The position numbers and the translations under genes were made by a program. The notes beneath the pieces were generated by a model. It was not told where the DNA came from, made no database searches, and worked only from the letters and a program-made list of their open reading frames with translations. A DNA stretch of 64,000 bases from Escherichia coli (GTDB lineage: Bacteria > Pseudomonadota > Gammaproteobacteria > Enterobacterales > Enterobacteriaceae). Each line of letters starts with the position of its first letter. Within the stretch, counting starts at the first letter, position 1. Shown piece after piece: positions 40,690-45,351 of the stretch. The DNA lies in the NCBI RefSeq assembly GCF_013122565.1, contig NZ_CP053258.1. One strand, written 5' to 3'.

Positions 40690-41784
40690 ATGGCACAACA
40701 GACTCCTTTGTACGAACAACACACGCTTTGCGGCGCTCGCATGGTGGATTTCCACGGCTGGATGATGCCGCTGCATTACGGTTCGCAAATCGACGAACAT
40801 CATGCGGTACGTACCGATGCCGGAATGTTTGATGTGTCACATATGACCATCGTCGATCTTCGCGGCAGCCGCACCCGGGAGTTTCTGCGTTATCTGCTGG
40901 CGAACGATGTGGCGAAGCTCACCAAAAGCGGCAAAGCCCTTTACTCGGGGATGTTGAATGCCTCTGGCGGTGTGATAGATGATCTCATCGTCTACTACTT
41001 TACTGAAGATTTCTTCCGCCTCGTTGTTAACTCCGCCACCCGCGAAAAAGACCTCTCCTGGATTACCCAACACGCTGAACCTTTCGGCATCGAAATTACC
41101 GTTCGCGATGACCTTTCCATGATTGCCGTGCAAGGGCCGAATGCACAGGCAAAAGCTGCCACACTGTTTAATGACGCCCAGCGTCAGGCGGTGGAAGGGA
41201 TGAAACCGTTCTTTGGCGTGCAGGCGGGGGATCTGTTTATTGCCACCACTGGTTATACCGGTGAAGCGGGCTATGAAATTGCGCTGCCCAATGAAAAAGC
41301 GGCCGATTTCTGGCGCGCGCTGGTGGAAGCGGGCGTTAAGCCATGCGGCCTGGGCGCGCGTGACACGCTGCGTCTGGAAGCTGGCATGAATTTGTATAGT
41401 CAGGAGATGGACGAAACCATCTCTCCTTTAGCCGCCAACATGGGCTGGACCATCGCCTGGGAACCGGCAGATCGTGACTTTATCGGTCGTGAAGCTCTGG
41501 AAGCGCAGCGTGAACATGGCACAGAAAAACTGGTTGGTCTGGTGATGACCGAAAAAGGCGTGCTGCGTAATGAACTGCCGGTACGTTTTACCGATGCGCA
41601 GGGCAACCAGCATGAAGGCATTATCACCAGCGGGACTTTCTCCCCGACGCTGGGTTACAGCATTGCGCTGGCGCGCGTGCCGGAAGGTATTGGTGAAACA
41701 GCGATTGTGCAAATTCGCAACCGTGAAATGCCGGTTAAAGTGACGAAACCTGTTTTTGTGCGTAACGGCAAAGCCGTCGCGTGA
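40690..41784 (+). CDS. gcvT: glycine cleavage T protein (aminomethyltransferase)
   Basis: 364 aa from [11 protein letters not shown]. Confidence 0.95.
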
Positions 41785-41807
41785 TTTACTTTTTTGGAGA
41801 TTGATTG

Positions 41808-42197
41808 ATGAGCAACGTACCAGCAGAACTGAAATACAGCAAAGAACACGAATGGCTGCGTAAAGAAGCCGACGGCACTTATACCGTTGGCATCACCGAA
41901 CACGCTCAGGAGTTGTTGGGCGATATGGTGTTTGTTGACCTGCCGGAAGTGGGCGCGACGGTTAGCGCGGGCGATGACTGCGCGGTTGCCGAATCGGTAA
42001 AAGCGGCGTCAGACATTTATGCGCCAGTAAGCGGTGAAATCGTGGCGGTAAACGACGTACTGAGCGATTCCCCGGAACTGGTGAACAGCGAACCGTATGC
42101 AGGCGGCTGGATTTTCAAAATCAAAGCCAGCGATGAAAGCGAACTGGAATCACTGCTGGATGCGACCGCATACGAAGCATTGTTAGAAGACGAGTAA
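41808..42197 (+). CDS. gcvH: glycine cleavage H protein
   Basis: 129 aa from [10 protein letters not shown]. Confidence 0.95.
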
Positions 42198-42314
42198 CGG
42201 CTTTATTCCTCTTCTGCGGGAGAGGATCAGGGTGAGGAAATTTACGCCTCACCCTCACTCTCTTCGTAAGGAGAGAGGTTCACAATTCACTGCACGTTTC
42301 AGGAACCATCGCTC

Positions 42315-45188
42315 ATGACACAGACGTTAAGCCAGCTTGAAAATAGCGGCGCTTTTATTGAACGCCATATCGGACCGGACGCCGCGCAACAGCAAGAAAT
42401 GCTGAATGCCGTTGGCGCACAATCGTTAAACGCGCTGACCGGCCAGATTGTACCGAAAGATATTCAGCTTGCGACCCCGCCGCAGGTTGGCGCACCGGCG
42501 ACCGAATACGCCGCGCTGGCGGAACTCAAGGCTATTGCCAGTCGCAATAAACGCTTCACGTCTTACATCGGCATGGGTTACACCGCCGTGCAGCTACCGC
42601 CGGTTATCCTGCGTAACATGCTGGAAAATCCGGGCTGGTATACCGCGTATACTCCGTATCAACCTGAAGTCTCCCAGGGCCGCCTTGAGGCACTGCTCAA
42701 TTTCCAGCAGGTAACGCTGGATTTAACCGGGCTGGATATGGCCTCTGCTTCTCTTCTTGACGAAGCCACCGCTGCCGCCGAAGCAATGGCGATGGCGAAA
42801 CGCGTCAGCAAACTGAAAAATGCCAACCGCTTCTTCGTGGCTTCCGATGTGCATCCGCAAACGCTGGATGTGGTACGTACTCGTGCCGAAACCTTTGGTT
42901 TTGAAGTGATTGTCGATGATGCGCAAAAAGTGCTCGACCACCAGGACGTCTTCGGCGTGCTGTTACAGCAGGTCGGCACTACTGGTGAAATTCACGACTA
43001 CACCACGCTTATTAGCGAACTGAAATCACGCAAAATTGTGGTCAGTGTCGCCGCCGATATTATGGCGCTGGTGCTGTTAACTGCGCCGGGTAAACAGGGC
43101 GCGGATATTGTCTTTGGTTCGGCGCAACGTTTCGGCGTGCCGATGGGCTACGGAGGCCCACACGCGGCATTCTTTGCGGCGAAAGATGAATACAAACGCT
43201 CAATGCCGGGCCGTATTATCGGTGTATCGAAAGATGCAGCTGGCAATACCGCACTGCGCATGGCGATGCAGACTCGCGAGCAACATATTCGTCGTGAGAA
43301 AGCGAACTCCAACATTTGTACTTCCCAGGTGCTGCTGGCAAACATCGCCAGCCTGTATGCCGTTTATCACGGCCCGGTTGGCCTGAAACGTATCGCTAAC
43401 CGCATTCACCGTCTGACCGATATCCTGGCGGCGGGCCTGCAACAAAAAGGTCTGAAACTGCGCCATGCGCACTATTTCGACACTCTGTGTGTGGAAGTGG
43501 CCGACAAGGCGGGCGTACTGGCGCGTGCCGAAGCGGCTGAAATCAACCTGCGTAGCGATATCCTGAACGCGGTTGGGATCACCCTTGATGAAACCACCAC
43601 GCGCGAAAACGTGATGCAGCTTTTCAGCGTACTGCTGGGGGATAACCACGGCCTGGACATCGACACGCTGGACAAAGACGTGGCTCACGACAGCCGCTCT
43701 ATCCAGCCTGCGATGCTGCGCGACGACGAAATCCTCACCCATCCGGTGTTTAATCGCTACCACAGCGAAACCGAAATGATGCGCTATATGCACTCGCTGG
43801 AGCGTAAAGATCTGGCGCTGAATCAGGCGATGATCCCGCTGGGTTCCTGCACTATGAAACTGAACGCCGCCGCCGAGATGATCCCCATCACCTGGCCGGA
43901 ATTTGCTGAACTGCATCCGTTCTGCCCGCCGGAGCAGGCCGAAGGTTATCAGCAGATGATTGCGCAGCTGGCTGACTGGCTGGTGAAACTGACCGGTTAC
44001 GACGCCGTTTGTATGCAGCCGAACTCTGGCGCACAGGGCGAATACGCGGGCCTGCTGGCGATTCGTCATTATCATGAAAGCCGCAACGAAGGGCATCGCG
44101 ATATCTGCCTGATCCCGGCTTCTGCGCACGGCACTAACCCTGCTTCTGCACATATGGCAGGAATGCAGGTGGTGGTTGTGGCGTGTGATAAAAACGGAAA
44201 TATCGATCTGACTGATCTGCGCGCGAAAGCCGAACAGGCAGGTGATAATCTCTCCTGCATCATGGTGACCTATCCTTCCACCCACGGTGTGTATGAAGAA
44301 ACGATCCGTGAAGTGTGTGAAGTCGTGCATCAGTTCGGCGGTCAGGTTTACCTTGATGGCGCGAACATGAACGCCCAGGTTGGCATCACCTCGCCAGGCT
44401 TTATTGGCGCGGACGTTTCGCACCTCAACCTGCATAAAACTTTCTGCATTCCGCACGGCGGTGGTGGTCCGGGTATGGGACCGATCGGCGTGAAAGCGCA
44501 TCTGGCACCGTTTGTACCGGGTCATAGCGTGGTACAAATTGAAGGCATGTTAACCCGTCAGGGCGCGGTTTCTGCGGCACCGTTCGGTAGCGCCTCTATC
44601 CTGCCAATCAGCTGGATGTACATCCGCATGATGGGCGCAGAAGGGCTGAAAAAAGCAAGCCAGGTGGCAATTCTTAACGCCAACTATATTGCCAGTCGCC
44701 TGCAGGATGCCTTCCCGGTGCTGTATACCGGTCGTGACGGTCGCGTGGCGCACGAATGTATTCTCGATATTCGTCCGTTGAAAGAAGAAACCGGCATCAG
44801 CGAGCTGGATATTGCCAAGCGCCTGATCGACTACGGTTTCCACGCGCCGACGATGTCGTTCCCGGTGGCGGGTACGCTGATGGTTGAACCGACTGAATCT
44901 GAAAGCAAAGTGGAACTGGATCGCTTTATCGACGCGATGCTGGCTATCCGCGCAGAAATTGACCAGGTGAAAGCCGGTATCTGGCCGCTGGAAGACAACC
45001 CGCTGGTGAACGCGCCGCACATTCAGAGCGAACTGGTCGCCGAGTGGGCGCATCCGTACAGCCGTGAAGTTGCGGTATTCCCGGCAGGCGTGGCAGACAA
45101 ATACTGGCCGACAGTGAAACGTCTGGATGATGTTTACGGCGACCGTAACCTGTTCTGCTCCTGCGTACCGATAAGCGAATACCAGTAA
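42315..45188 (+). CDS. gcvP: glycine dehydrogenase (decarboxylating) P protein
   Basis: 957 aa. Confidence 0.95.
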
Positions 45189-45210: not shown

Positions 45211-45232
45211 AAAGGCGCTTCGGCGCCTTTTT
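45211..45232 (+). terminator. gcvP intrinsic terminator
   Basis: aaaggcgcttcggcgccttttt. Confidence 0.8.
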
Positions 45233-45314
45233 AGCTTGTTAATAAAGTGCGCTTTGTGTGTCGGATGAAGCGTAAATATAAAATCCTGGAGTTCAATATA
45301 TGACAGGAGCGCCA

Positions 45315-45340
45315 GGCCTGATGAGCGGGGCGCATCAGGC
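45315..45340. repeat. REP-like palindrome in the gcvP-bglA spacer
   Basis: gcctgatg agcggggcg catcaggc. Confidence 0.5.
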
Positions 45341-45351
45341 ACATCGGGTAA

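Follow-up and report, generated by a model that had tools for sequence, protein, structure and literature searches.

The window analysed here, a 64,000-nucleotide stretch of Escherichia coli DNA, includes the gcvTHP operon, and in the RefSeq annotation gcvH and gcvP lie on either side of a 117-nt intercistronic spacer bounded by the gcvH stop codon (TAA, 42195-42197) and the gcvP ATG at 42315 (Table 1). At a threshold of at least 90% identity the spacer is present, and at a single place, in 5425 of 5426 complete E. coli genomes, and it is 100% identical in E. coli strain 214-4. An initial annotation, made from the sequence, noted three consecutive hairpins in the spacer, with no T-run after them and no likeness to REP elements, and proposed that they could serve as RNA stability or processing determinants that tune gcvP expression against that of gcvTH; folding, conservation, and mapping of gcv transcript ends were suggested as checks.

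Table 1. Coordinates of features in and around the gcvH-gcvP spacer (window numbering).
Feature	Position	Strand	Sequence or structure	Evidence
gcvH CDS	41808..42197	+	129 aa + stop	translation; RefSeq annotation of identical flanks
gcvH-gcvP intercistronic spacer	42198..42314	+	117 nt	single locus in 5425/5426 E. coli genomes
Composite inverted boxC pair	42203..42280	+	full match to model R1	48.2 bits, E ~5e-10
boxC unit 1	42207..42238	+	HP1 (42207-42226), linker UCA, GGGUGAGG	consensus match; HP1 -11.8 kcal/mol
HP1	42207-42226	+	UCCUCUUC / UGCG loop / GGAGAGGA; 8 bp including one U.G	-11.8 kcal/mol
HP2 (middle hairpin)	42229-42255	+	AGGGUGAGG / 9-nt loop / CCUCACCCU; 9 bp	-15.2 kcal/mol
boxC unit 2, inverted	42246..42277	-	on the + strand: CCUCACCC, linker UCA, HP3	inverted repeat; minus-strand pattern match
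HP3	42258-42277	+	CUCUCUUC / GUAA loop / GGAGAGAG; 8 bp including one U.G	-10.6 kcal/mol
Equivalent of major K-12 RNA 3′ end	42259	+	RNA ...GCCUCACCCUCACU	Adams 2021 supplementary file 1, coordinate mapping checked
gcvP leader/translation-initiation region	42278..42314	+	AGGA 42301-42304	spacer comparison
gcvP CDS	42315..45188	+	957 aa + stop	translation, RefSeq annotation
Operon-end intrinsic terminator	45214..45233	+	GGCGC-UUCG-GCGCC + U-run	sequence; K-12 Term-seq end 3046123 inside U-run

Folding bears out the three hairpins, with stems slightly longer than had been noted; for HP3 the hairpin itself stands, but the 5-bp stem given earlier is refined to 8 bp. The spacer has a minimum free energy of -44.4 kcal/mol, compared with -29.9 +/- 3.3 kcal/mol for 200 dinucleotide shuffles, none of which folds as well (z = -4.36), and the antisense strand folds more weakly (-37.0 kcal/mol, z = -2.46). 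HP2 is the most stable of the three (pair probabilities 0.87-1.0), and all three persist when the fold is extended to a 450-nt context (pair probabilities 0.72-1.0). The sequence has no T-run after HP1, HP2, or HP3, and a terminator-pattern scan of the spacer, with no matches, agrees. REP motifs are likewise absent from the spacer in the window, which has sequence of a pyrimidine/purine-arm type instead. A single long hairpin, a possible RNase III substrate, was considered and set aside for this allele (-30.0 kcal/mol versus -44.4 for three hairpins), and is favoured only in a divergent Escherichia genome, L003; an internal gcvP promoter was also discarded, as a scan of the spacer found no promoter-like site. 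Separately, we note that the last codons of gcvH (AGAAGACGAGTAA, 42185-42197) are 85% complementary to the region of the HP1 5′ arm (42203-42215); where no ribosomes are present, pairing of the two would compete with HP1.

BoxC repeats are said to have been described by Bergler in 1992 and by Bachellier. They are 56 bp long and present in 32 copies according to a survey as it is cited in PMC2267715, and were later rediscovered as PIT elements (Hoyne and Maher 2000) and as TMECO (Holder 2015); in MG1655 there are 23 TMECO copies, and five are inverted pairs that join a TTA-linker unit to a CCG-linker unit (Holder 2015). Judged by its sequence, the three-hairpin structure between gcvH and gcvP is a degenerate inverted pair of boxC (PIT, TMECO) units, an identity that the initial annotation had missed. 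With the gcv copy as the BLAST query against E. coli genomes there is no second copy at E <= 1e-5, and with one place per genome the spacer therefore at first seemed to be unique sequence; the repeat identity emerged from orthologous spacers and from the use of a canonical copy as query. The canonical Enterobacter cloacae composite matches a median of 17 and a maximum of 33 places per E. coli genome, and canonical copies in K-12 include those at hrpB-mrcB (a full inverted pair), upstream of fabI, and at glnH-glnP, lldD-trmL, and ilvC-ppiC.

Two kinds of search place the gcv copy in this family. A covariance model, R1, built from the K-12 hrpB-mrcB pair and six composites of other genera (7 sequences), matches only 42203-42280 across the 64-kb window, with the next best score at 11 bits; the minus strand of the same segment scores 41.7 bits. 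Six of the seven training sequences come from gcvH-gcvP spacers of other genera, so they may descend from the same insertion; these six are nearly identical to the unrelated hrpB-mrcB pair of K-12. The K-12 boxC consensus GGGAGAGGGNNNGGGTGAGGG, which was derived from non-gcv K-12 copies only, has its sole match in the window at 42218-42238 (2/18 mismatches, 0.04 matches expected), and the inverted unit 2 departs from the consensus at four positions. A search of 41000-43500 against Rfam 15 at a permissive threshold returned only chance matches, which scored 19.9 and 19.8 bits where the families' gathering thresholds are 93 and 37 bits. Single boxC units aligned with MAFFT had their 5′ arms misplaced, and this alignment was kept out of model building.

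The layout of a boxC unit, CCCTCTCCC - loop - GGGAGAGGG - 3-nt linker - GGGTGAGGG, is found here in degenerate form, and there is overall dyad symmetry between arms at 42209-42237 and 42247-42275, which are 72% complementary. HP1 and HP3 are the pyrimidine/purine hairpins, one in each unit, and HP2 is formed by pairing of the GGGTGAGG blocks of the two units, and thus exists only because the units are inverted. Since all three belong to the boxC family, they were inherited from the repeat rather than evolved for the gcv operon. The gcv copy shares with other members the pyrimidine arm, short loop, purine arm, 3-nt linker, and GGGTGAGG block, the three hairpins that follow from inverted units, and an intergenic position, and its units lie 9 nt apart in the same arrangement as at hrpB-mrcB. 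It differs from canonical copies in its 8-bp stems with A/T substitutions and U.G pairs, its short 9-nt central loop, its apparently reduced triplex potential (by inspection, at most 7/9 triads in unit 1 together with a T.G mismatch in the duplex, and fewer in unit 2), and its linkers, UCA and UGA, which are neither type A (TTA) nor type B (CCG). In their own gcvH-gcvP spacers, E. cloacae and E. asburiae carry copies with the linkers CAG and TTA. Among the gcv-region rows of Holder's Table S2 we found a ygfF-gcvP pair only and no entry for gcvH-gcvP, so the copy described here appears to be uncatalogued in those rows.

Seven alleles of the spacer were sampled in E. coli, and they differ only in the loop of HP2 (42238-42246), which has substitutions and a 1-nt insertion and looks hypervariable, and in the loop of HP3 (42267), where GUAA is replaced by GCAA, both being GNRA tetraloops; the other ~100 nt of the spacer are invariant. 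As no stem position varies among these alleles, covariation within E. coli is not informative. Compared with the family consensus, HP1 and HP3 have each undergone one double change from C-G to U-A and contain U.G pairs, and no pair is disrupted; of the 27 pairs in the R1 model, 25 are kept on the sense strand, where U.G pairs are used, and 22 on the antisense strand. Template switching at the DNA level can match changes across a palindrome, so these compensatory changes are no proof of selection on RNA. Nearly perfect arms are found in L003, the divergent Escherichia genome. In E. coli VTB96775v (NZ_CP178634.1 855477-855691) the spacer is expanded, with HP2 duplicated and an inverted copy of HP3 in between, which could be either a palindrome-mediated template-switch rearrangement or an assembly artefact.

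To place the element in a wider context, the gcvH locus was taken from 80 species genomes and the gcvH-gcvP spacers, which range from 8 to 445 nt, were extracted. Within the Enterobacteriaceae conservation is limited to the ~37 nt that precede the gcvP ATG, and this leader (..ATTCACTGCACGTTTCAGGAACCATCGCTC ATG) is kept whichever repeat lies upstream of it. A near-perfect three-hairpin form, CCCTCTCCC..GGGAGAGGG - GGGGTGAGGG..CCCTCACCC - CCCTCTCCC..GGGAGAGGG, is present in Enterobacter cloacae, E. asburiae, Pseudocitrobacter, Buttiauxella, Siccibacter, and others, and the hairpins of E. coli are a worn version of it at the same place relative to both flanks. Cedecea and Phytobacter have one boxC-type hairpin; the spacers of Citrobacter, Lelliottia, and Trabulsiella hold REP elements, and those of C. 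koseri and Kluyvera hold ERIC elements. There is thus turnover of spacer elements from genus to genus, and occupation by mobile repeats may mean only that the spacer tolerates insertion. We also observed very long spacers in a Providencia MAG (L078, 445 nt) and in Serratia marcescens (L079, 319 nt); the former has accumulated repeats to an extreme degree, with roughly three ERIC-like copies in tandem.

By a crude parse, 66 of the 80 species have a stable hairpin (-7 kcal/mol or better) in the spacer, the first usually starting ~10 nt past the gcvH stop codon. In the Enterobacteriaceae the hairpin is derived from boxC, REP, or ERIC and has no T-run, whereas a hairpin followed by a T-run is found in many other Enterobacterales (roughly half) and in most Alteromonadales. 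Dickeya dadantii has a measured internal intrinsic terminator after gcvH, with ~71% termination (Forquet 2022), and terminators of similar appearance are found in Pectobacterium, Yersinia, Photorhabdus, Providencia, Pantoea, and Shewanella. These terminators and the E. coli element share their operon position and a presumed excess of gcvTH over gcvTHP mRNA, but the former are canonical GC hairpins with T-runs and the latter is repeat-derived and has none. Not every species punctuates the operon after gcvH, as Rosenbergiella and two Erwinia species have hairpin-free spacers of 8-23 nt.

The suggestion that gcv transcript ends be mapped can be followed up in published data. In the Term-seq data for K-12 (Adams 2021, eLife), a 3′ end at MG1655 3049097 on the minus strand, classed as "orphan" and with scores of 412219 and 171112, is entered three times in a file that spans three growth conditions. 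It corresponds to window position 42259, which is 4 nt past the HP2 stem and 2 nt into the 5′ arm of HP3, within CACU; the convention of the Adams 2021 table (each entry giving 50 nt before the end and 10 nt after it) was verified on known terminators and on the K-12 sequence. In the sole condition with both ends, the gcvTH end has ~11 times the score of the operon-end terminator after gcvP (36065; Adams 2021), although Term-seq scores are not calibrated for transcript ratios. An internal E. coli transcript end after gcvH, seen by SMRT-Cappable-seq and SEnd-seq, is also cited by Forquet 2022. The proposed role in RNA stability or processing therefore gains from a strong 3′ end, but for HP2 and not for all three hairpins, since HP2 alone coincides with the mapped end. 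As an aside, Adams 2021 also lists strong minus-strand 3′ ends at K-12 3050723 and 3050602 (window ~40634 and ~40755), one 56 nt before the start of gcvT and the other 66 nt into the gene, a hint that the gcvT leader may undergo premature termination or processing.

The same offset recurs at other boxC hairpins. Canonical copies in K-12 at glnH-glnP (847200), lldD (3781065), and ilvC-ppiC (3959467) each have a Term-seq end exactly 4 nt past the stem, and at a fourth boxC hairpin (632098) the end lies 11 nt past it. These ends resemble those described genome-wide by Dar and Sorek (2018), in which stable stem-loops without a U-tract halt PNPase and RNase II and so determine where transcripts end at steady state. 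HP2 has the features of such a stem-loop, being stable (Table 1), free of a U-tract, and placed directly before a precise end. In this it is like the exonuclease-blocking stem-loops at Rho-dependent ends, which also combine a stable stem-loop, the absence of a U-tract, and a precise 3′ end just downstream; the gcv site differs in having no reported bicyclomycin-sensitive region and a weak downstream bias of C over G (1.24 at most). Supplementary file 2 of Adams 2021 lists no Rho (bicyclomycin-sensitive) region in K-12 3048000-3049199, and given this and a C/G bias too weak for a C-rich, G-poor rut region downstream, Rho dependence is not supported.

REP elements and BIMEs are familiar inside polycistronic operons, as in malE-malF and hisJ-hisQ. 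The gcv element is similar in being a repeat-derived, stable, intercistronic hairpin without a U-tract that would give the more abundant upstream segment its 3′ end by blocking exonucleases; it differs in that its sequence is unrelated to the REP consensus GCCGGATG...CATCCGGC. We know of no link between boxC and REP-associated transposases, IHF, or gyrase sites. The element is a degenerate boxC member that would work like an operon REP, and it is not itself a REP, an intrinsic terminator, or a member of an Rfam family. We also note that in the glnH-glnP spacer (NC_000913.3 847120-847257) one canonical boxC unit separates glnH, which encodes a periplasmic binding protein, from glnP, which encodes a membrane component, the same arrangement as that of the REP elements in malE-malF.

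A decayed boxC pair is fixed between gcvH and gcvP in E. coli and is transcribed within the gcvTHP mRNA, and we think it probable, if well short of certain, that HP2 blocks 3′ exonucleases, which leaves a stable gcvTH mRNA and uncouples gcvP from it. RNA polymerase would read through at first, and the long gcvP segment would then be lost by cleavage or by a polymerase stop downstream. Exonucleases moving 3′ to 5′ would enter from downstream and be halted by HP2, with HP1 behind it, and the outcome would be an abundant gcvT-gcvH transcript ending 4 nt past HP2 and a rarer full-length gcvTHP mRNA. Such a difference in abundance implies that the GcvP message is lower than, and partly uncoupled from, the message for GcvT and GcvH, and the 3′ end would accordingly lower GcvP relative to GcvH. 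The boxC element would then fill the role played at the same position in more distant genera by a classical leaky terminator.

The 3′ end could instead arise by termination. RNA polymerase might itself stop at or just past HP2, at the pyrimidine-rich CACUCUCUUC, perhaps with the help of NusA or NusG, so that the hairpins would be a leaky terminator. Forquet 2022 does describe the site in E. coli as one of internal transcription termination, citing SMRT-Cappable-seq and SEnd-seq, true terminators occupy the same place in more distant genera, and we found no Rho region or downstream stop that would feed exonucleases. A direct intrinsic stop, however, is expected 7-9 nt past the stem and in a U-run. 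The hairpins have no U-tract and the RNA ends 4 nt past the stem, unlike the end at the gcvP terminator, which does lie in a U-run; other boxC hairpins, followed by different sequence, show the same 4-nt offset, and reporter assays by Maher are reported to have detected no terminator activity in canonical PIT elements. A constant short offset from the stem, irrespective of downstream sequence and with no U-tract, is a hallmark of exonuclease trimming back to a stable hairpin, and we regard direct termination as unlikely. A stronger competitor, though one we still consider less likely than not, is that the repeat is a selfish or accidental insertion decaying in a tolerant spacer, the 3′ end being an unavoidable by-product of any stable hairpin with no adaptive effect on gcv expression. 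The copy is degenerate and is missing from the gcv-region rows of Holder's TMECO table, different genera have different mobile repeats here and some have almost no spacer, and published work found no role in expression for the family, with the Maher and Holder studies reporting canonical boxC/TMECO elements to be without effect on gene expression. Against a neutral relic are the fixation of the element in 5425 of 5426 genomes, the confinement of all polymorphism in the 7 alleles to hairpin loops with none in stems, the changes from consensus in HP1 and HP3, which are compensatory or give sense-strand U.G pairs and never break a pair, and the recurrence of a hairpin soon after gcvH, from unrelated sources, in 66 of 80 species. 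These observations suggest that the gcvTH 3′ end, or the lowering of GcvP, may be under selection.

Two further readings place the function elsewhere than in the RNA 3′ end, and both seem improbable to us. The element could act in DNA, a triplex or cruciform affecting replication or promoting local rearrangement while the RNA hairpins are incidental; TM loci have been reported to form triplexes in vitro and to undergo more rearrangement (Holder 2015), the gcvH-gcvP element shows an apparently palindrome-mediated expansion in VTB96775v, and the canonical pair that lies downstream of gcvP in K-12 is absent from the window strain. By inspection, however, unit 1 offers no more than 7/9 triads with its T.G mismatch and unit 2 does worse still, the locus otherwise shows extreme stability over 5425 genomes, and a DNA-level function leaves the strong RNA end without an account. 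Slighter still, in our estimate, are the chances of translational control, in which HP1 would hinder terminating ribosomes or HP3 would hide an AAGGAG that draws ribosomes upstream of gcvP. REP elements close to stop codons are said, in 2015 work by Liang, Rudd, and Deutscher, to interfere with terminating ribosomes, and HP1 begins at 42207, 9 nt past the gcvH stop; the 3′ arm of HP3 contains UAAGGAGAGAGG, and the alternative pairing of the gcvH end with the HP1 5′ arm could also favour such a role. Yet the AAGGAG is ~40 nt from the gcvP ATG and, on comparison of spacers, is not conserved in genera with other repeats, and the only in-frame start nearby is an AUU.

If exonuclease blocking by HP2 is correct, the boxC copy between gcvH and gcvP explains why the gcv operon of E. 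coli has a very strong and unannotated ("orphan") RNA 3′ end, and the gcvTH end illustrates how glycine-cleavage genes can differ in level when expressed from one promoter. It also suggests a role at the RNA level for boxC/PIT/TMECO elements, the function of which has been in question since the 1990s. The spacer also illustrates an evolutionary pattern in which mobile repeats and classical terminators replace each other at one position of an operon. More tentatively, and with confidence that falls somewhat below even, we speculate that these elements, hitherto seen either as lacking a function or as sites of DNA-triplex instability, act generally, in the manner of REP, as RNA modules that set and shield mRNA 3′ ends, and that the gcv pair has been retained, in place of an ancestral leaky terminator, as a determinant of the GcvTH:GcvP ratio. 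What is new here is modest, namely an uncatalogued boxC copy tied to a strong orphan 3′ end, and the general placement of boxC hairpins 4 nt upstream of mapped ends; the components are all of known kinds, the mechanism is familiar from REP elements, and current understanding is not overturned.

Several minor observations concern gcvP and the region beyond it. The gcvP leader has a small predicted hairpin in which UUCaCUG pairs with the CAGGAA of the Shine-Dalgarno region. Pairing of the GcvB sRNA with the C/A-rich gcvP leader (42256-42340) was considered and rejected, as 31-70% of shuffled or random genomic controls were as good, and an N-terminally extended GcvP was rejected because the Shine-Dalgarno-like sequence that would serve its in-frame AUU start (42285), the AAGGAG upstream of it in HP3, is not conserved in other genera. 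Just past the gcvP terminator, K-12 (L086 1-268) has a canonical boxC/TMECO inverted pair and ygfF. Both are absent from the window strain at 45235-45350, where R1 finds nothing; this segment has a different sequence with a REP-like palindrome, gcctgatgagcggggcgcatcaggc, and runs straight into the next minus-strand gene, which, going by the order of genes in K-12, is probably bglA.
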